64,000 nt of DNA from an uncultured Anaerolinea sp. (GTDB lineage: Bacteria > Chloroflexota > Anaerolineae > Anaerolineales > UBA4823), in contig CAZDAU010000004.1 of the NCBI GenBank assembly GCA_964503625.1, positions 39,964 to 103,963 of the forward strand, read 5' to 3'. The first letter of the stretch is position 1. The number at the start of each line of letters is the position of its first letter. Below are positions 3 to 10,958 of this stretch, piece by piece. A program made the translations under genes and the position numbers. The notes under the pieces were generated by a model. It saw nothing but the letters and a program-made list of their open reading frames with translations. It was not told where the DNA came from and ran no database searches.

Positions 3-266
3 GGCGGGACAAAAACGGTTGCCTATGGCGGCACTCCTGTGATCGTGCTGCGCACCGCTGAAAGCATCCGTGCGTATTCGATGATCTGCACCCACCTCGG
101 CTGTACGGTGCAGTGGCAGGAAGCGCCTAAAGAGTTTTATTGTCCCTGCCATGATGGGCGCTTTGACCAGTTTGGTGAGGTGCTCGCCGGCCCGCCGCCG
201 GTGCCTCTGGAGCAGATCCCTGTGAGCGTGCAAGGCGAGACAGTCACGGTTGGCGAGCCGGTTTGA
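3..266 (+). CDS. Rieske [2Fe-2S] protein (5' truncated by window edge)
   Basis: CTHLGC and CPCHDG Rieske boxes plus GPPP motif; frame is open back to position 3. Confidence 0.9.
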   Translation, partial: GGTKTVAYGGTPVIVLRTAESIRAYSMICTHLGCTVQWQEAPKEFYCPCHDGRFDQFGEVLAGPPPVPLEQIPVSVQGETVTVGEPV

Positions 267-295
267 GTCCGATTGCAAGAGACGACGAGGCGCGA

Positions 296-673
296 ATGAA
301 ACATTACACGGTATTGATCCTTTTCTCTGCCCTGATTTTGCTGGCTGTGCTGGCAACCCTGGCACACCCACAAGCGGCCAGGGCACTGCCGGAATATTCC
401 GCTCAGACCAGCGAGCCCTGTGCCAGTTGCCACCTCAGCCCATCGGGAGGCGGGCCGCGCGGGCTGCGCGGCCAGGCCTGGGTGGGCAGCGGTAAGCCCG
501 GTGCGGTGCCAGCCCTGGCCGATGCCCTGGAACTGCTTGGCATCCACCTGCAGGTGGACGAGCGTGAGTACCGGGCCAGCGGGGGGCCCATCCCGCCAGC
601 CCAACCCGTGCAGGTTGATCCGGCTCAGGCGCAGGACATGCACGATCATCTGAGCAGCTTCGATGGAAATTAG
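296..673 (+). CDS. Small secreted monoheme cytochrome c
   Basis: ATG at 296 gives signal peptide MKHYTVLILF...AARA; single CASCH heme-binding motif. Confidence 0.75.
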   Translation: MKHYTVLILFSALILLAVLATLAHPQAARALPEYSAQTSEPCASCHLSPSGGGPRGLRGQAWVGSGKPGAVPALADALELLGIHLQVDEREYRASGGPIPPAQPVQVDPAQAQDMHDHLSSFDGN

Positions 674-3062
674 CGCTATGGATGCCAACTACACCTCAAA
701 CACAAAGCCGAACCTGACCCGGCGTGAGTTCATCCGGGCCGGAGCAGCCGTCACTGCCTTGGGAGCAGCGGCGCTGACCCTGGGGCAAAAAATGAACACC
801 GCACCTGCGATGGTGGAGACGTTTGAGGAAGCCGTCGTCAAGACGACCTGCGCCTTGTGCCCATCCGGCTGCGGGTTGGATGTGCGAGTGGTCAATGGAA
901 ATGCGGTGAAAGTAGAGGGCAACGCCCTGCACCCGCTCAACCAGGGCGTGTGTTGCTTGCGCGGCCAGGCATCCTTGGAAGCATTGTACAGCCCAGAACG
1001 CCTGGCCCACCCCCGCCGACAAATGGGGAAGCGGGGCAGCGGCGATTGGCAGGAGATCAGCTGGGATGAGGCCCTGGCCCTGGCTGCAGAGAAGCTCGGG
1101 GTGCTGCGCCAAGAGCGCCAGGCGCATCGCCTGGCGCTGGTGCATGGTGAGCTGCGCGGCCAGATGCGCGCCTTTGTTGGCCGCTTTCTGGAGGCTTATG
1201 GTTCGCCCAACCTGATCAGCCGGGAAAGCCTGGCCAGCCAGGCCGCCCGCCAGGCTATGTTCCTCAGCCAGGGGATCAATGGCTTGCCAGTTTACGATCT
1301 TAACAACGCCAACTATGTGATGACCTTTGGCGGCAACCTGCTGGAGACCAGCCGCAATGTGATTGTTAACCTGGAGGCGATTGCGTTTATGCGCCGCGGC
1401 CGCCCGCAGCGCGGCAAGCTGGTGGCAGCGCACCCGCGCCTCTCACTAACCGGGATCAAGGCCGACGAGTGGGTGCCCATCCGGCCCGGGACTTACGCCG
1501 CCCTGGCTCTGGGCATGGCAAACGTGATCATCAACAGCCAGCTCTACGACAAGAGCTTCGTGCATGATTTCACCTTCGGCTTTGAGGATTTTAAGGACGC
1601 CGATGGCAAGACTCACCAGGGATTCAAGAGCCTGGTGCAAGAGCAGTACGACCTGGAGCGAGTGTCGTCTATCACGGGCGTGCCTACCGAGACTATTGCC
1701 AGGCTGGCGGGTGAGTTTGCCACCAACCGCCCGGCAGTGGCCATCCTGCCTAACGAGATCAGCGAGCTTTCCAGCGGCAACAGCCTGTACACCGCCCTGG
1801 CGGTGCATGCCTTGAACGCCCTGGTTGGCTCGATCGACGTTCCGGGTGGGGTCCTGGTGCAGCGCTTCCCGGAGGTGGCCGAATGGCCCGAGTTCCAGCC
1901 AGACGAGGCGGCACAGGCGAGCCTGAGCCAACCTCGGCTGGACGGCGCAGGGTCGTCAGAGCTGCCCCTGGCAATTTCAGCTTACCAAAACCTGGATGCG
2001 GCCATCCTTTCTGGGCAACCCTACCCGCTGGAGATCTTGATTCTGCTCAACGCTGACCCGCTATTCGATGCACCCAACCATGGACAGATGCTGGCCGCCC
2101 TTAACAAAATCCCCTTCATTATCAGCTTTGCGTCCACCCTGGATGAGAGCGCGGCGATGGCTGACCTGATCCTGCCCGCCAGCACTTTCATGGAACAGTG
2201 GGGCGATGACTATATGGAGGGCGTGGGCTACGCAGGGGTCTCTTTGCGGCGGCCAGTCGTCGAACCGGTGCTGGATAATCGCAACCCAGGAGATGTGCTG
2301 TTGGAGCTGGCAGCACGGCTGGGCAGCCCGATGGCCCAGGCATTGCCCTGGAAGGATTACCAGGAAGTGGTGGCCTACCGGCTGGCCGGAGCGCCGCTGG
2401 AATGGGAGAAACTGGACGCCAATGGTTTCTGGGCCGAAATGGTGCACTTCAACGCCGAGCCGGGCAGTCCTGCCTGGGGCCGGGTAGTTGGCCGAGACCG
2501 GCTGCGCGCGCCCAAAGACGGCCGCTTTGACCTGTTCTCGCGCGAACTCTTTGCTCTGTTCGGAGGGGATCAGGCCCAGGACCTGGCCTGCCTGCCACAC
2601 TTTGAACTGCCGGCATCGCTGGATGAAAGCGCTGCAATGGCTCCGGAATACCCCTATTTGCTGATCCCAGGATCGCTGATCACCGAGTCGCAGTCCTGGC
2701 AGGGTATCTTGCCAACCCTGCAAGAATCGCTGGGGTTGCAGGGCAATGTCAAGTGGTCTAGCTGGCTAGAGATCAATCCCAAGGCTGCTGAGGCGCTGCA
2801 CCTGAAAAATGGCGACCTTGCCTGGGTGGAATCGCCGCTTGGGAAAACCCAGGTGCCGGTGCGGGTCTATCCCGGCATCTGGCCAAACGCGGTGTTCATG
2901 CCATTGGGGCAGGGGCGCCACACGATGGTGCAATGGGGACCCAAATCCCCTGAGCAGATGGTGGTAGGCAGCAACCCCAGCCGCCTGGGCCAGATCTCCA
3001 GCGAGCCAATAAGCGGCCAGGCGGTGAGCAGCCCGATTCGGGTAAAGGTGTACCGGGCCTGA
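663..3062 (+). CDS. Molybdopterin oxidoreductase-family subunit, QrcB/ActB-like, Tat-exported
   Basis: TRREFI Tat motif; CALCPSGC...C N-terminal Fe-S motif; KVEGNALHPLNQG; C-terminal molydop-binding-like domain (LEINPKAAEAL). Confidence 0.88.
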   Translation: MEISAMDANYTSNTKPNLTRREFIRAGAAVTALGAAALTLGQKMNTAPAMVETFEEAVVKTTCALCPSGCGLDVRVVNGNAVKVEGNALHPLNQGVCCLRGQASLEALYSPERLAHPRRQMGKRGSGDWQEISWDEALALAAEKLGVLRQERQAHRLALVHGELRGQMRAFVGRFLEAYGSPNLISRESLASQAARQAMFLSQGINGLPVYDLNNANYVMTFGGNLLETSRNVIVNLEAIAFMRRGRPQRGKLVAAHPRLSLTGIKADEWVPIRPGTYAALALGMANVIINSQLYDKSFVHDFTFGFEDFKDADGKTHQGFKSLVQEQYDLERVSSITGVPTETIARLAGEFATNRPAVAILPNEISELSSGNSLYTALAVHALNALVGSIDVPGGVLVQRFPEVAEWPEFQPDEAAQASLSQPRLDGAGSSELPLAISAYQNLDAAILSGQPYPLEILILLNADPLFDAPNHGQMLAALNKIPFIISFASTLDESAAMADLILPASTFMEQWGDDYMEGVGYAGVSLRRPVVEPVLDNRNPGDVLLELAARLGSPMAQALPWKDYQEVVAYRLAGAPLEWEKLDANGFWAEMVHFNAEPGSPAWGRVVGRDRLRAPKDGRFDLFSRELFALFGGDQAQDLACLPHFELPASLDESAAMAPEYPYLLIPGSLITESQSWQGILPTLQESLGLQGNVKWSSWLEINPKAAEALHLKNGDLAWVESPLGKTQVPVRVYPGIWPNAVFMPLGQGRHTMVQWGPKSPEQMVVGSNPSRLGQISSEPISGQAVSSPIRVKVYRA

Positions 3063-3093: not shown

Positions 3094-3780
3094 ATGTCAC
3101 GCTGGGGTATGGTAATCGATCTGGACAAGTGCTTTGCCTGCCAGAGCTGCACGGCAGCTTGTCGCATGGAAAATAACACGCCCGTTGCTGGCCCAGACCA
3201 GACCGACATGGGCCGGGCCATCCTGTGGAATGAGGTGCTGCCATTTATTGAAGGGGAATACCCGCTGGTGCACGCCACAATGATCCCCCGGCCATGCATG
3301 CACTGTGATAACCCGCCCTGCACCAAGGTCTGCCCGGTTAAAGCAACGTATAAAAATGAAGAGGGCATTGTGGTGGTGGACTATGACCGCTGCATCGGCT
3401 GCCGCATGTGCACCGTGGCCTGCCCCTATGAGGTGCGCTACTTCAATTGGTACCCGCCCGAATGGCCGGAGGCGCTGAAGCAGCACCTTAATCCTGACCC
3501 GGAGACGGCGCCTCGGCCCAAGGGCGTGGTGGAAAAATGCACCTTCTGCATCCAGCGATTGCGCAAAGCGCGCGAGCGCGCCGCTGCCGAGGGGCGGACT
3601 TTCCAGGCCACCGATTATATGCCTGCCTGCGTGCAGACTTGCACCGGTCACGCCCGCTACTTCGGCGACCTGGATGATCCAAACAGCCTGGTCTCAAAAC
3701 TGGCTCACAGTCCGCGGGCTTTCCGACTATTGGAAGAGCTGGGCACCGAGCCCAAAGTGTACTATCTGAAACAGGGGTAA
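3094..3780 (+). CDS. 4x[4Fe-4S] electron-transfer subunit (QrcC/NrfC/DmsB-like)
   Basis: CFACQSC, CMHCDNPPC, CIGCRMC, KCTFC...PAC motifs; GAGGAGGT RBS. Confidence 0.92.
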   Translation: MSRWGMVIDLDKCFACQSCTAACRMENNTPVAGPDQTDMGRAILWNEVLPFIEGEYPLVHATMIPRPCMHCDNPPCTKVCPVKATYKNEEGIVVVDYDRCIGCRMCTVACPYEVRYFNWYPPEWPEALKQHLNPDPETAPRPKGVVEKCTFCIQRLRKARERAAAEGRTFQATDYMPACVQTCTGHARYFGDLDDPNSLVSKLAHSPRAFRLLEELGTEPKVYYLKQG

Positions 3781-3786
3781 GCGACT

Positions 3787-5109
3787 ATGCACCTGCATAA
3801 CCAACACGAAGATACGATCCTGGCGCCCATCCGCAAGCCTTCCATCGTTGACCGGCTGATCTGGCTGTTGCTGGGAGGCCTGTTTGCGGTGGGCCTGGCT
3901 GCCTGGATACGCCAGTATGTGCTTGGCCTGGGCGTGACCGGGCTGAACCGACCGGTCTACTGGGGTGTGTACATCACCAACTTCGTCTTCTTCATCGGCC
4001 TGGCCCACTCCGGCACCTTCATTTCGGCGATCCTGCGCATCGCCGGACAGGGCTGGCGCAAGCCGCTCACCCGGGCCGCCGAGGCCATAACCGTTTTCAG
4101 CCTGCCCTTTGGTGTGGCCTCCATCCTGGCAGACATGGGGCGCCCGGAACGGGTGTTCAATGTTATCTTCTTTGGACGCTACCAATCGCCCATCCTGTGG
4201 GACTTCACCGCTGTAGGGCTATATTTTCTGTCCAGCATTGTTTTCTTTTATCTCTCATTGATGCCCGATATTGCCCTGTGCCGAGACCGGTTAACCAACT
4301 TGCCCGGTTGGCAACAGCGCATGTACAAAATCATGGCTCTGGGCTGGCAGGGGCGACCGGAGCAATATCATCGCCTGGAGCGCGTATTGGACGGCATGGC
4401 AATCTTCATGACCATGCTGGTAGTCACCGTCCACACGGTGGTTTCCTGGATGTTTGGCATGACCCTGCAGCCCGGCTGGCACACGGCGCTGATCGGGCCT
4501 TTCTTCTTGCTTGGAGCGATCCTTTCCGGGACGGCGGCGGTGGTGATCGTGCTGGCAATCCTGCGTAAGATCTATCATTTCGAGCAAATCCTGCACCTGG
4601 GATTGTTCAATTCGATCCGCAAGCTGCTGATCACCTTCACCCTGGGTTGGATTTACATGATGATCGCTGAATACCTGACCACCGGCTATGGCAACATGAA
4701 AGAAGAAATGGCAGTTTTGCTTGACAAGTTCACCGGCACCTATGCCCAGATGTTCTGGGGCATGGTGATCCTGGTGTTCGTGCTGCCCCTGATCATTCTG
4801 GTCTTTAAGGGGAAGAATCACATCGGCTGGATGGTCACGGCAGGCGTGATGATTAACATCGGCATGTGGATCGAGCGCTACATCGTGATCATCCCCAGCG
4901 AGATCAGCCCGCGCCTGATGACCGAAATGGGTCGGGGGATCTATCTGCCCACCCTGACCGAGTGGCTGATCACCCTGTCTTTCTTCAGCGGGATGATCCT
5001 GCTGTACCTCCTCTTCACCCGCTACTTCCCGATTATCCCGATCTGGGAGACTGCGGAAGAAATGCCAGAAGCGCAAACCATTGAAGGCGAATTGGCAGTT
5101 GGAGATTAG
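3787..5109 (+). CDS. NrfD/PsrC-family membrane subunit (QrcD/ActC-like)
   Basis: About 10 hydrophobic segments; WGVYITNFVFFIGLAHSGTFISAIL and DMGRP NrfD motifs. Confidence 0.9.
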   Translation: MHLHNQHEDTILAPIRKPSIVDRLIWLLLGGLFAVGLAAWIRQYVLGLGVTGLNRPVYWGVYITNFVFFIGLAHSGTFISAILRIAGQGWRKPLTRAAEAITVFSLPFGVASILADMGRPERVFNVIFFGRYQSPILWDFTAVGLYFLSSIVFFYLSLMPDIALCRDRLTNLPGWQQRMYKIMALGWQGRPEQYHRLERVLDGMAIFMTMLVVTVHTVVSWMFGMTLQPGWHTALIGPFFLLGAILSGTAAVVIVLAILRKIYHFEQILHLGLFNSIRKLLITFTLGWIYMMIAEYLTTGYGNMKEEMAVLLDKFTGTYAQMFWGMVILVFVLPLIILVFKGKNHIGWMVTAGVMINIGMWIERYIVIIPSEISPRLMTEMGRGIYLPTLTEWLITLSFFSGMILLYLLFTRYFPIIPIWETAEEMPEAQTIEGELAVGD

Positions 5110-5111
5110 GA

Positions 5112-5285
5112 ATGATGGATATTTCAAGCCTGGCTTACGCCTTTATTAATACCCCCGGTGTGGGCGGTGTTGTGATCCTGCTGGTCTTTCTGACTGCGTG
5201 CAGCATCTATTATGCCCTGACACGGTGGATCATCGCCGGCGGCGACCATCCCACGGACAGGAGTAAACAAGAGCATGAAGGCTAG
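5112..5285 (+). CDS. Unannotated 57-aa single-TM protein
   Basis: Hand translation MMDISSLAYAFINTPGVGGVVILLVFLTACSIYYALTRWIIAGGDHPTDRSKQEHEG; GGAG 7 nt upstream; fills the gap between the NrfD stop and the next start. Confidence 0.65.
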   Translation: MMDISSLAYAFINTPGVGGVVILLVFLTACSIYYALTRWIIAGGDHPTDRSKQEHEG

Positions 5286-7239: not shown

Positions 7240-7289
7240 AACCCAAAGGTCTCCTACGACCTTCAGGGACAGAAATATGAGGAGCCATC

Positions 7290-7931
7290 ATGGATCTTGT
7301 CAACATCACCCGCATCATCGCTTGGATCGGCCTGGCCCTCGGATGGCTCGGCATCCTGCTGCGCCTGGGCGAGATCATGCGGCGCCCTTTGAACAAAGAT
7401 TACTCTCCGCGGCGCGGCTCTGACCGCCGCGGCGTCCTTTACGCCTTCACCCTGGGCATGGCGCCCTGGGAAAAGGAGAGCACCCGCAAGCACTGGGTGG
7501 CTTACTTGCGGGGCATTTTCTTTCATGTGGGCGTGTTCACCGCTTTCGGCGTTTTTTTGGCCAGCCCGTGGCTGGAGGCGCTGCCGCCCTTTGTCACCTG
7601 GACCGCCCTGGCGCTGACCGCTGCCGGAGCCCTGTTTGGCTTCGCCGGAATCGGCATGCGCTGGATGGGCGAAAACGAGCGGGCGCTCAGCCTGCCAGAT
7701 GATTATTTTTCAGTCTTTTTGAGCTCACTTTTTACGGCCCTGGCCTGCGGCGTACTGTTTTGGCCTGGGCTGCTGGCGGTTTTCTACCTGGCAACGGCGC
7801 TCCTGTGCGTCTATATCCCCTTCGGTAAAATCCGGCATTGTGTGTATTTCTTCTATTCGAAGTTCTTCTTTGGCAAGAACTTCGGCCACCGAGGCGTGCT
7901 TGGCCCAGACAACCAGAAGGCGTTGGAGTGA
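7290..7931 (+). CDS. NarI/HmcE/DsrM-like membrane cytochrome b subunit
   Basis: FFHVG, SLPDDY and YIPFGKIRH motifs; about 5 TM segments; adjacent to a CCG-domain protein. Confidence 0.75.
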   Translation: MDLVNITRIIAWIGLALGWLGILLRLGEIMRRPLNKDYSPRRGSDRRGVLYAFTLGMAPWEKESTRKHWVAYLRGIFFHVGVFTAFGVFLASPWLEALPPFVTWTALALTAAGALFGFAGIGMRWMGENERALSLPDDYFSVFLSSLFTALACGVLFWPGLLAVFYLATALLCVYIPFGKIRHCVYFFYSKFFFGKNFGHRGVLGPDNQKALE

Positions 7932-7937
7932 ATCGAT

Positions 7938-9293
7938 ATGGCAGATGAGAAACCTACGGATGGTAAATTTGCCGCTGAACGCTATCAGCTTACCGATGAA
8001 AAAGCCAGGCTGGCGTTGGATGTGCTGCGCCAGCGGCTGAACCGCCAACTGGAAGCCTCGCTGGAGGTTTGCGTGCGATGCGGCCTGTGCGCCGACTCCT
8101 GCCATTATTATGTGGCTAACCCCAGGCCAGAATACGTGCCTGCTTACCGCGCCGAACAACTGCGGAAAATTTACCGCAAGCTGAGTGATCCGCTGAGCAA
8201 GGTTTCCCCTGGGTGGACTGGAGCCGCCGAGCTGGACCAGGAGATGGTGGAAAAATTGATCTACACCGCCTTTGGCTCATGCACCATGTGCGGGCGCTGC
8301 GTCATCAATTGCCCGGTGGGTGTGGATACCCGGCACATTGTGCGCACCGCCCGGGCAATGCTGACCGCCATCGACATGACACCGGAGGGATTGAGAGCCA
8401 CCGTCAACGTCCATCTGGAAAGCGGCAATAATATGGGCGTTGGCGAGGAAGATTACATTGAAACGGTCAAGTGGATGGAGGAAGAGCTGCAAGCTGAGCT
8501 GGATGATCCCGGATTGACCATCCCCTTCAACAAAAAGCGCGCCCACGTGGTGTACACTTTCAACCCACGGGAGGTGAAATACTTCCCCTACCTGATCCAG
8601 GCGGCGGCAAAAATCTTCACGGCTGCCGGCGAGGACTGGACATTGAGCACCGAGAACTGGGACGCCACCAACTATGGCTTGTTCTCTGGCGACGATGCCG
8701 CCGCGCGGACCATCGCTGGGAACCTGGAGAAAGCGGTGAACAACCTGGGCGCGGATGTTTTGGTGATGGCGGAGTGTGGGCATGGCTACCGCTCGCAGCG
8801 CTGGGAGGCTGAAAACTGGCTCGGCCGCAGCTATCCCTTTAAGGTCACCAGTTTTGTCGAGATGCAGGCTGAATACATCCGCCAGGGACGTTTAAAGCTT
8901 GACCCCATAGTCAATGCCAAGCGGGTGACCTACCACGACCCCTGCAACCAGGCCCGCCAAGGAGGTGTTATCCACGAGCCGCGCTATATCCTGCGCCACG
9001 TAGCTATTGATTTTGTCGAAATGGAGCCGCACGGGGTGGATAACTTCTGCTGCGGCGGTGGTGGCGGGATGCTCTCGATGAGCGAATTTGCGAAAGACCG
9101 CATTGCTGCTGGCAAGGTGAAAGCAGATCAGATCCAGGCCACCGGCGCAGAGATCGTGGCCACCTCGTGCCATAATTGCCTGGACCAGCTTGACGAAATC
9201 CGCCGGCATTATAAACTAAAGGTGAAGGTCCAGAACCTGAGCGAGCTCACCGCTGCTGCGATCGTCTGGACGAAAACCCAGGACAGAAAATAA
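7938..9293 (+). CDS. Heterodisulfide reductase-like Fe-S protein (HmcF/DsrK/TmcB-like)
   Basis: CVRCGLCADSC and CTMCGRCVINCP; CCG domain CX34CCGX37CX2C (YHDPC...FCCGGGGG...SCHNC). Confidence 0.88.
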   Translation: MADEKPTDGKFAAERYQLTDEKARLALDVLRQRLNRQLEASLEVCVRCGLCADSCHYYVANPRPEYVPAYRAEQLRKIYRKLSDPLSKVSPGWTGAAELDQEMVEKLIYTAFGSCTMCGRCVINCPVGVDTRHIVRTARAMLTAIDMTPEGLRATVNVHLESGNNMGVGEEDYIETVKWMEEELQAELDDPGLTIPFNKKRAHVVYTFNPREVKYFPYLIQAAAKIFTAAGEDWTLSTENWDATNYGLFSGDDAAARTIAGNLEKAVNNLGADVLVMAECGHGYRSQRWEAENWLGRSYPFKVTSFVEMQAEYIRQGRLKLDPIVNAKRVTYHDPCNQARQGGVIHEPRYILRHVAIDFVEMEPHGVDNFCCGGGGGMLSMSEFAKDRIAAGKVKADQIQATGAEIVATSCHNCLDQLDEIRRHYKLKVKVQNLSELTAAAIVWTKTQDRK

Positions 9294-9548: not shown

Positions 9549-10958
9549 TTGGCCCCAGCCACCCCTCTACCCCGCCTGGTGATCGCCGCCCCACAAGGGC
9601 GCAGCGGCAAAACCACGCTCTCCTTGGGCATCTGCGCCGCGCTGGCCCGGCGCGGGTTGGATATCCAGCCATTTAAAAAAGGACCCGATTATATCGATCC
9701 TTCCTGGCTCAGCGAAGCTGCCGGGCGCGCCTGCCGCAGCCTGGATCCTTTCTTCCTGCCTGGGGCGGCGGCGTTACGGAAGGCACTCTTGAAAGGCGCC
9801 CGCCGGGGCGAGCAGGCAGCCGACCTCTGCCTGGTGGAAGGCAACCACGGCTTGTACGACTCGCTGGAAGAGGACGGCAGCGGCAGCAGTGCAGCGGTGG
9901 CCCGGATCTTGGGGGCGCCGATAATCCTGGTGGTCAATGCAGCGCGCATGTCGCGCAGCGCAGCCGCCATGGTCCACGGCTACCAGACTTTTGAGCCCGA
10001 TACCCCCATTGCAGCCGTCATCCTGAACAACGTTGCCCAGGGCCGCCACCTGGCCAAGCTGCGCCGCGCCATCGAAAGCCACTGCCGCATCCCTGTGATC
10101 GGCGCACTGCCGCGGGACGCCAACCTGACGATCCCAGACCGCCACCTGGGTCTTGTGCCACGGGGCGAGGACCCCGGCCTGCTCCCGGTCATCCAGGCTT
10201 GCCGCCAGGCTGTGGAGCGCTTTGTGGACCTGGAAGCCCTGCTGGCAATTGCGCGTTCGGCGCCCGCCTGGGAAGTCCCAGGCGAGCCGGTCGAAGCATC
10301 CAGACCTGCGCAAGGCCAGCGCAGCCAACCGGTCATCGGTGTGCTGCGTGACCAGGCCTTCTCCTTTTACTACCCGGAAAACCTGGAAGCGTTGGAAGCC
10401 TGTGGGGCGCGACTGGTGTTTATTGATGCCCTGCACACATCCCGCCTGCCCCGGGTTGACGCCCTGTATATGGGTGGAGGCTTCCCTGAGATCTTTATGG
10501 AGACTCTGAGCCAAAACACAGCCTTCCGCCAGGATGTGCGCCAGGCTGCTGAAGATGGGCTCCCGGTGTACGCCGAGTGCGGTGGCTTGATGTACCTGTC
10601 GCAGCGGATAAGATCAGCCGGTCAGCAGGCAGAGATGGCCGGCGTCCTGCCATGCGAAGTGGAGATGACACTCACCCCACAGGGGCACGGTTATGTGTTG
10701 GCCGAATGCACTGGCCAAAACCCGTTTTTTGCTGTTAACACCCGGCTGCGCGGCCATGAATTTCACAATTCACGCCTGACTGGCCTGCCAGAAGGGTGGC
10801 CAGCCGCCCTGCGGTTGGAGCGCGGGGCGGGCATCGGCGGCGGGCGGGATGGGCTGGTCTATCGCAATGTCTTTGCCAGCTACATGCACCTGCACGCTGC
10901 CGGGGCCCCTGGCTGGGCGCAAAGCCTGGTCGATGCGGCCCAGCGTTTTGCGGCCTAA
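9549..10958 (+). CDS. cbiA: Cobyrinate a,c-diamide synthase family (CbiA/CobB; DsrN-like)
   Basis: GRSGKTT, FKKGPDYID, VEGNHGLYD, AFSFYY, AECGGLMYL, GHEFH motifs. Confidence 0.9.
   Translation: MAPATPLPRLVIAAPQGRSGKTTLSLGICAALARRGLDIQPFKKGPDYIDPSWLSEAAGRACRSLDPFFLPGAAALRKALLKGARRGEQAADLCLVEGNHGLYDSLEEDGSGSSAAVARILGAPIILVVNAARMSRSAAAMVHGYQTFEPDTPIAAVILNNVAQGRHLAKLRRAIESHCRIPVIGALPRDANLTIPDRHLGLVPRGEDPGLLPVIQACRQAVERFVDLEALLAIARSAPAWEVPGEPVEASRPAQGQRSQPVIGVLRDQAFSFYYPENLEALEACGARLVFIDALHTSRLPRVDALYMGGGFPEIFMETLSQNTAFRQDVRQAAEDGLPVYAECGGLMYLSQRIRSAGQQAEMAGVLPCEVEMTLTPQGHGYVLAECTGQNPFFAVNTRLRGHEFHNSRLTGLPEGWPAALRLERGAGIGGGRDGLVYRNVFASYMHLHAAGAPGWAQSLVDAAQRFAA

Follow-up and report, generated by a model that had tools for sequence, protein, structure and literature searches.

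A membrane protein of 213 amino acids, P0001, is encoded by the stop-free open reading frame (ORF) at positions 7290 to 7931 in a 64,000-nucleotide stretch of contig CAZDAU010000004.1 from an uncultured Anaerolinea sp.; this whole stretch is referred to here as the window. P0001 is probably a single-heme anchor of the NarI/TmcC fold, which together with the cytoplasmic CCG-type iron-sulfur enzyme encoded 7 nucleotides downstream would form a two-subunit module that links quinone to this enzyme without transmembrane electron transfer. In NarI, H56 and H205 ligate the proximal heme, and H66 and H187 ligate the distal heme. P0001 contains the proximal histidine pair, located on the second and fifth transmembrane helices (TM2 and TM5), but lacks the distal pair, and the loss is found throughout the protein family. 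The features on which this reading is based are given below, with conservation counts that refer to 116 full-length representatives of different 50%-identity clusters.

7280 to 7284, forward strand: ribosome-binding site AGGAG, read directly in the sequence, 5 nt from the ATG
7290 to 7931, forward strand: P0001, membrane subunit of the NarI/TmcC fold with five transmembrane helices, N-terminus outside and C-terminus inside
7491 to 7493, forward strand: codon for His68 at the cytoplasmic start of TM2, family-specific (His in 100 of 116, Asn in 7)
7524 to 7526, forward strand: codon for His79, predicted proximal ligand on TM2 (NarI H56), conserved in 115 of 116 and aligned with the proximal His
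7554 to 7565, forward strand: Phe89 to Ser92, site of the lost distal ligand on TM2, at +10 in the NarI/DsrM register and +13 in the TmcC/HmcE register, in columns that are never His
7554 to 7556, forward strand: codon for Phe89, +10 from His79
7782 to 7784, forward strand: codon for Phe165, -18 from His183, site of the lost distal ligand on TM5 (NarI H187), in a column of F/L/Y/W/M in the family
7836 to 7838, forward strand: codon for His183, predicted proximal ligand at the cytoplasmic end of TM5 (NarI H205), conserved in 116 of 116 and aligned with the proximal His
7887 to 7889, forward strand: codon for His200, a non-conserved residue of the C-terminal tail (Arg in 70 of the 116 representatives and His in 17)
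7938 to 9293, forward strand: CCG/HdrD-type iron-sulfur partner (DsrK/HmcF/TmcB-like) with two [4Fe-4S] motifs, E-C280-G-H282, and one CCG motif

The AlphaFold2 (AF2) model of P0001 has a mean predicted local distance difference test score (pLDDT) of 75.7 and a predicted template modelling score (pTM) of 0.73. It forms a five-helix bundle with long helices predicted at residues 3-30, 68-97, 100-126, 136-157, and 159-193. Loop 1 contains ten lysine and arginine residues, and such residues are also present in loop 3 and the C-terminal tail, while the two periplasmic loops, both short, contain none. This distribution places the N-terminus on the outside and the C-terminus on the inside, as in NarI, and P0001 thus has the five-helix bundle and the topology of the NarI superfamily. 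A Foldseek search with the model returned NarI chains at the top (probability 1.0, TM-score 0.47-0.55), and EtfD from M. smegmatis was ninth. At the sequence level, the relationship is more distant. No Pfam family matched P0001 at E ≤ 0.1, including PF02665, which is matched by the genome's own DsrM (40.2 bits), and a phmmer search with P0001 against the PDB gave no match, while a narrow family profile gave a single spurious one at 0.72. NCBIfam profiles matched weakly, with 31.6 bits for TmcC (NF045723; E 1e-7) against a cut-off of 240, and 24.1 bits for HmcE (NF045716; E 2e-5) against a cut-off of 275. The protein contains only four histidines, at residues 68 (KHW), 79 (FFHVG), 183 (KIRH), and 200 (GHR), all of which are on the cytoplasmic side. 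There is no histidine in the periplasmic half, nor any of the methionines (residues 1, 30, 57, 123, and 126).

The first-pass annotation of the window, in which P0001 was aligned to NarI by eye, had placed the histidines of FFHVG and KIRH on the proximal heme ligands and pointed to a phenylalanine at +10 from the first and at -18 from the second. All four residues are present, and profile alignments confirm the placement. In the hhalign comparison of the 116-sequence family profile with a TmcC-like protein (L094), which spans the full length (99.45%, E 4.8e-22), His79 and His183 align with the proximal pair, Ser92 aligns with the distal histidine of TM2, which in that branch is at +13, and Phe165 aligns with the distal histidine of TM5. 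The comparison with the genome's own DsrM, which serves as an internal control (probability 92.9%, E 3.6e-7), sets His79 on the first histidine of TM2, Phe165 on the distal histidine of TM5, and His183 on the last histidine. A profile search of the PDB retrieved NarI chains only, with weak E-values (0.5-0.8), in which H56 corresponds to His79, H66 to Leu or Phe, H187 to Phe, and H205 to His183. The hhalign comparison with E. coli NarI alone was weak (43.7%) and covered only TM3 and loop 3, thus missing the helices that carry the heme ligands; the mapping to NarI therefore rests on the PDB profile search and on the bridge via DsrM and the TmcC-like proteins. In a joint alignment, NarI, four DsrM proteins, three TmcC-like proteins, and one HmcE-like protein all contain the four histidines, while 14 members of the family from four phyla contain the proximal pair only. 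The one adjustment concerns the distal position on TM2: +10 is correct in the register of NarI and DsrM, but the closest relatives use +13, which is Ser92 in P0001 and likewise not a histidine.

These closest relatives are TmcC and HmcE of the Tmc and Hmc complexes, and TmcC-like proteins encoded beside the small subunits of NiFe-hydrogenases. The comparators used here are all "-like" proteins with scores of 99-134 bits, below the NCBIfam cut-offs, and no TmcC or HmcE sequence above them was found in 151 sampled genomes. They share with P0001 the five transmembrane helices, the loop motifs KGS..G and PW.K, the motif P-x-S/G-K/R-x-x-H, the FG.RGV tail, and the pairing with a CCG protein of the TmcB/HmcF type. 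However, all four TmcC/HmcE-like comparators have kept the distal histidines at +13 on TM2 and -18 on TM5, where P0001 has Ser92 and Phe165, and they have an asparagine or an arginine at the position of His68. The DsrM protein of the same genome has the same fold and the same proximal motifs (VFHV and PFSKLLH, compared to FFHV and PFGKIRH in P0001), and each of the two is paired with a DsrK-type protein in one dsr gene cluster. It differs in that it contains four histidines in the +10/-18 arrangement and matches PF02665. Compared to NarI, the gamma subunit of E. coli nitrate reductase A (PDB 1Q16 chain C), the sequence similarity is marginal, the distal ligands H66 and H187 and the quinol site on the periplasmic side are absent, and the partner is a CCG protein rather than NarH. 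HdrE of the methanogen HdrDE complex, described as a di-heme cytochrome b, is likewise a membrane anchor, in its case for a disulfide reductase of the CCG type.

The family is large. A word-indexed search identified at least 955 clusters at 90% identity, of which those with a name belong to Anaerolineales, and an exhaustive HMMER search identified at least 363 clusters at 50% identity. Most members are from Chloroflexota, with some in other phyla, and they have no Pfam annotation; the neighbors of P0001 in the ESM Atlas are likewise unnamed clusters, or clusters labelled "nitrate reductase gamma", without Pfam families. No residues of the family are more strongly conserved than His79 and His183. 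In contrast, column 89 is occupied by L/F/V/A/S and column 165 by F/L/Y/W/M, with no histidine at either in any of the 116 representatives. In a count that was independent of the alignment and took the two proximal motifs as its reference points, histidines occurred in both distal windows of just 1 of 103 representatives. Single histidines are scattered in the distal windows of some members (13 on TM2 and 7 on TM5). The idea that they are relics of a di-heme ancestor was dropped, as the carriers were neither basal nor clustered in a FastTree phylogeny. The same phylogeny placed the family as sister to the TmcC/HmcE-like proteins, but with weak support (0.36 and 0.56). Conservation is also unevenly distributed across the membrane, with 2.0-2.9 bits per column in the cytoplasmic loops and in the inner halves of TM2-TM5, and 1.2-1.7 bits per column in the periplasmic halves, which is the pattern expected from an anchor in which all function would be located at the inner side.

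A structural precedent is provided by EtfD from M. smegmatis (PDB 9OJN), which has FadF and DgcB as relatives. Its membrane domain has five transmembrane helices and a single heme b coordinated by His78 and His241 (PMC13083937), and the heme is located about 7 Å from a [4Fe-4S] cluster and 4-5 Å from the head group of menaquinone (PMC13083937). EtfD has also been overlaid on a model of HdrDE (PMC13083937). There is therefore experimental evidence that a NarI-like domain can have one heme only, on the inner side, and feed quinone. The model of P0001 is consistent with the same design, a single TM2/TM5 histidine pair on a NarI-like domain of five helices, and the partner protein matches EtfD (chain 9ojn_A) with an E-value of 2.6e-14, although the family-profile searches of the PDB gave no sequence-level match between the membrane domains of EtfD and P0001. 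There are also clear differences. EtfD is one chain of 1042 amino acids that contains a linear [3Fe-4S] cluster as well as two CCG domains, while P0001 and its partner are encoded by two genes, with one Pfam match to the CCG domain, and the genetic context is sulfur metabolism rather than beta-oxidation. Furthermore, the domains of the electron transfer flavoprotein (ETF), to which the EtfD-type proteins are linked, are encoded on contigs C10 and C6 and not on C4, the contig with P0001, and since the ETF genes are located elsewhere in the genome, P0001 is not an ortholog of EtfD in function.

In one member of the family, P0173 (670 amino acids), a one-heme anchor (residues 12-205) is naturally fused to a module with two [4Fe-4S] motifs and a CCG domain, resembling the single chain of EtfD. 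No other fusion of this type is present among the 150 representatives listed; a phmmer search with P0173 against the PDB did not reach EtfD, and a search for longer, fused relatives of P0001 found none, which is weak evidence. A more distant structural neighbor of P0001 in the ESM Atlas is a Campylobacterota cluster of CitB (PF27541, "citrate utilization protein B"), with a TM-score of 0.72 over residues 7-202. This modelled similarity suggests that there may be further NarI-fold anchors attached to cytoplasmic dehydrogenases.

The partner protein scores 320 bits against the NCBIfam profile for HmcF, 291 against that for TmcB, and 271.7 against that for DsrK, all of which are below the cut-offs. 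The gene pair differs from DsrMK, in which DsrM contains four conserved histidines and DsrK scores above the cut-off of 400 bits. The adjacent protein is of the TmcB/HmcF type. It has kept the HDPC...CCGGG...CxxC motif that is common to DsrK and the TmcB-like and HmcF-like proteins. The cysteine and the histidine of the E-C-G-H motif have been assigned to catalysis (DsrMKJOP structure preprint). The pairing is obligate: in gene neighborhoods extracted from genome loci by ORF calling and clustering, the NarI-like gene adjoins the CCG gene in all 80 loci. These loci were sorted into two tiers, one with 32 close loci (at least 58% identity, all of the Anaerolineae type) and another with 48 distant loci (40-50% identity) from other Chloroflexota, a few Bacteroidota, Clostridia, and one deltaproteobacterium.

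The other genes of the cluster in the window are the following.

3 to 266, forward strand: Rieske fragment at the window edge
263 to 673, forward strand: monoheme c protein with the motif CASCH
663 to 3062, forward strand: molybdopterin-family subunit
3094 to 3780, forward strand: 4Fe-4S protein
3787 to 5109, forward strand: NrfD
5112 to 5285, forward strand: ORF of 57 amino acids with a transmembrane segment
5275 to 7239, forward strand: monoheme protein of 654 amino acids with the motif CLSCH and a transmembrane hairpin
9549 to 10958, forward strand: amidase of the CobB/CbiA type, labelled DsrN-like, which closes the cluster

The gene order is similar in the close tier, where the pair usually follows the genes for the molybdopterin-family subunit, the 4Fe-4S protein, NrfD, and the 654-amino-acid monoheme protein. 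The gene for the CbiA-type amidase is located beside the pair in 29 of the 32 loci, and downstream of it in 26. The cluster encodes two c-type heme motifs, CASCH and CLSCH, which are single motifs in separate proteins, and no multiheme cytochrome; it therefore lacks a counterpart to the periplasmic multiheme cytochromes c of the TmcA/HmcA type. Just upstream of the window on contig C4 (L003:807-3435), there is a dsrC-like gene, the product of which ends in PTGCV, a gene for a four-histidine DsrM of 249 amino acids (P0271), and dsrK. The dsrM gene is located 9.3 kb upstream of the gene for P0001, and it was found 9.4-10.4 kb upstream on the same strand in four of the five related genomes tested, including "Ca. 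Desulfolinea nitratireducens". This conserved placement indicates that the Qrc-like genes and the NarI-like/CCG pair form a block that is inserted between dsrMK and the gene for the CbiA-type amidase.

The gene content is different in the distant tier, where the companion genes of the close tier are missing next to the pair in the 48 loci. The molybdopterin, iron-sulfur, and NrfD genes are not beside the pair in any of the 45 loci that could be assessed; at one further distant locus, L047, iron-sulfur and NrfD homologs are located about 4 kb upstream. Instead, a gene for a DsrE_2 protein (PF13686) with one invariant cysteine directly precedes the pair in 43 of the 45 distant loci with sufficient upstream sequence, and a regulator of the ArsR family is encoded nearby in 39 of the 45. 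A four-gene cassette that encodes ArsR, DsrE_2, the one-heme NarI-like anchor, and the CCG protein is seen at L039:4899-8125 and at 44 further loci (within L039-L086). No description of this cassette, or of a one-heme TmcC/HmcE protein, was found in the literature searched. In the genome studied here, the only DsrE_2 gene is on another contig (L087, C43:23313-23759) and thus apart from the one-heme anchor, unlike the distant cassette.

The di-heme TmcC-like comparators have yet another context. In three genomes from the phylum of G001 (L093, L094, and L095), the genes for TmcC-like di-heme cytochromes b (118-134 bits, with the TmcC cut-off at 240) have genes for the small subunit of a NiFe-hydrogenase and for a CCG protein of the TmcB-like kind as their flanking neighbors. 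This arrangement looks like a transmembrane wire from a hydrogenase to the cytoplasm without the TmcA cytochrome. The hydrogenase is a periplasmic source of electrons, and the comparison with the distant one-heme loci thus associates two hemes with a periplasmic partner and one heme with none.

Could electrons nevertheless cross the membrane in Anaerolineae if P0001 binds a single heme? For this to be the case, a neighboring protein, either the 654-amino-acid protein, the 57-amino-acid transmembrane protein, or NrfD, would have to supply a bridging cofactor or its ligands, making the whole cluster a wire similar to Hmc or DsrMKJOP. The order of the genes for the iron-sulfur protein, NrfD, the small transmembrane protein, the cytochrome c, the NarI-like protein, and the CCG protein does parallel HmcB-F and is conserved in the 32 close loci, and the cluster also encodes two monoheme c proteins and a Rieske protein. 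However, the transmembrane helices of the 654-amino-acid protein and the 57-amino-acid ORF contain neither histidine nor methionine, the periplasmic halves of P0001 are its least conserved parts, which speaks against conservation of a site for docking or for a cofactor, and the same one-heme anchor occurs in 45 loci with no genes for periplasmic partners alongside. We consider such a bridge unlikely. The first-pass annotation had proposed that the electrons come from quinol or from the NrfD module. Quinol is consistent with the menaquinone in EtfD and with the gene content of all 45 distant loci, while the second option, electrons received directly from the NrfD module, is less likely and, in our view, improbable.

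The number of hemes can also be questioned in both directions. A second heme might be bound at the cytoplasmic surface by His68 and His200, or by a non-histidine or partner-derived ligand. The spacings of 11 residues between His68 and His79, and 17 between His183 and His200, are similar to the 10 and 18 in NarI, and His68 is retained in most representatives. Yet His200 is most often replaced by arginine and varies even within the close clade, it is located in a tail outside the helix bundle with pLDDT below 50, and His68 is replaced by asparagine or other residues in 16 of the 116 representatives, a degree of variation not seen in the true ligands, which are nearly invariant. In all profile alignments, the proximal pair is matched by His79 and His183, and since His68 and His200 are both cytoplasmic, a second heme at this site would still not span the membrane. 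We therefore judge it very unlikely that these histidines of the KHW and GHR motifs, which the first-pass annotation had named as alternative distal ligands, take this role. In the joint alignment, the column of His68 contains Asn in the TmcC-like proteins, Asp in DsrM, and Arg in the HmcE-like proteins. As His68 tolerates replacement by asparagine, the residue of the TmcC-like proteins, it is probably a hydrogen-bond partner rather than an axial ligand, and it may contact a heme propionate or the quinone. Conversely, P0001 could be an anchor without any cofactor that merely tethers the CCG protein, with its conserved histidines having structural or interfacial roles. The protein has no Pfam match, and heme binding in the family is a prediction. 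A tether, however, would need neither of the two histidines, and those retained are exactly the proximal ligand pair and the most conserved residues of the family; moreover, the equivalent pair in EtfD binds a heme in the solved structure. The chance that the anchor is free of heme therefore seems slight.

The most probable reading thus remains that P0001 is a single-heme anchor. The prediction in the first-pass annotation of one heme on the cytoplasmic side, and of no electron path through the membrane, agrees with the one-heme structure of EtfD, the match between the model and EtfD, and the gene content of the distant loci. We infer that a bis-histidine heme b would be coordinated by His79 of TM2 and His183 of TM5 in the cytoplasmic half of the membrane, with the outer heme site of the di-heme relatives filled by hydrophobic residues. 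As in the mycobacterial EtfD, this heme would wire a quinone site to the clusters of the partner. Electrons would pass from the quinol/quinone site to heme b, through the two [4Fe-4S] clusters to a non-cubane cluster and the Cys-Gly-His site, and on to a cysteine-bound sulfur substrate. The path could be used in either direction and would involve no charge separation at P0001, making it electroneutral. Physiological electron tunnelling requires gaps of about 14 Å or less between cofactors. Because of this limit, a single heme in the inner leaflet cannot join the two faces of the membrane, and the module must use the quinone pool.

The substrate of the partner would most likely be a cysteine-bound sulfur, which may be a DsrC trisulfide or persulfide in the dsr cluster and a persulfide bound to DsrE_2 in the wider family. 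In the cluster studied here, quinone rather than a heme wire would then connect the one-heme module with the Qrc-like NrfD module. A broader, more tentative proposal is that the family represents a widespread type of quinone-linked oxidoreductase, previously undescribed, that acts on protein-bound sulfane sulfur. The basic version of it might be the DsrE_2 cassette regulated by ArsR, which would have been recruited to the dsr cluster of the Anaerolineae beside the Qrc/ACIII-like NrfD module. If so, sulfite reduction in these bacteria might depend on two modules that are linked via the quinone pool, and not on a heme wire of the DsrMKJOP type.

The concept of a single-heme anchor is already known, with EtfD as the structural precedent (2025-2026). 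What is new is a large, two-gene, TmcC-like branch that is linked to sulfur metabolism and has been missed by Pfam, and for which no single-heme description was found in the literature searched. DsrM, TmcC, HmcE, NarI, and HdrE are each regarded as di-heme wires through the membrane, and it depends on the number of hemes in a cytochrome b anchor whether a membrane potential is generated when the attached enzyme oxidizes quinol. Genomic surveys that score any pair of NarI-like and HdrD-like proteins as an equivalent of DsrMK or Hmc would misread the one-heme family. The two types of anchors can be separated by a simple sequence rule, namely the presence or absence of histidines at +10 or +13 on TM2 and at -18 on TM5. 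The loss of the outer heme site throughout a large family implies an electroneutral, EtfD-like coupling in a setting of sulfur metabolism. Models of the energy gained from sulfite or sulfate respiration would have to be revised accordingly for Anaerolineae with dsrAB, "Ca. Desulfolinea" among them.
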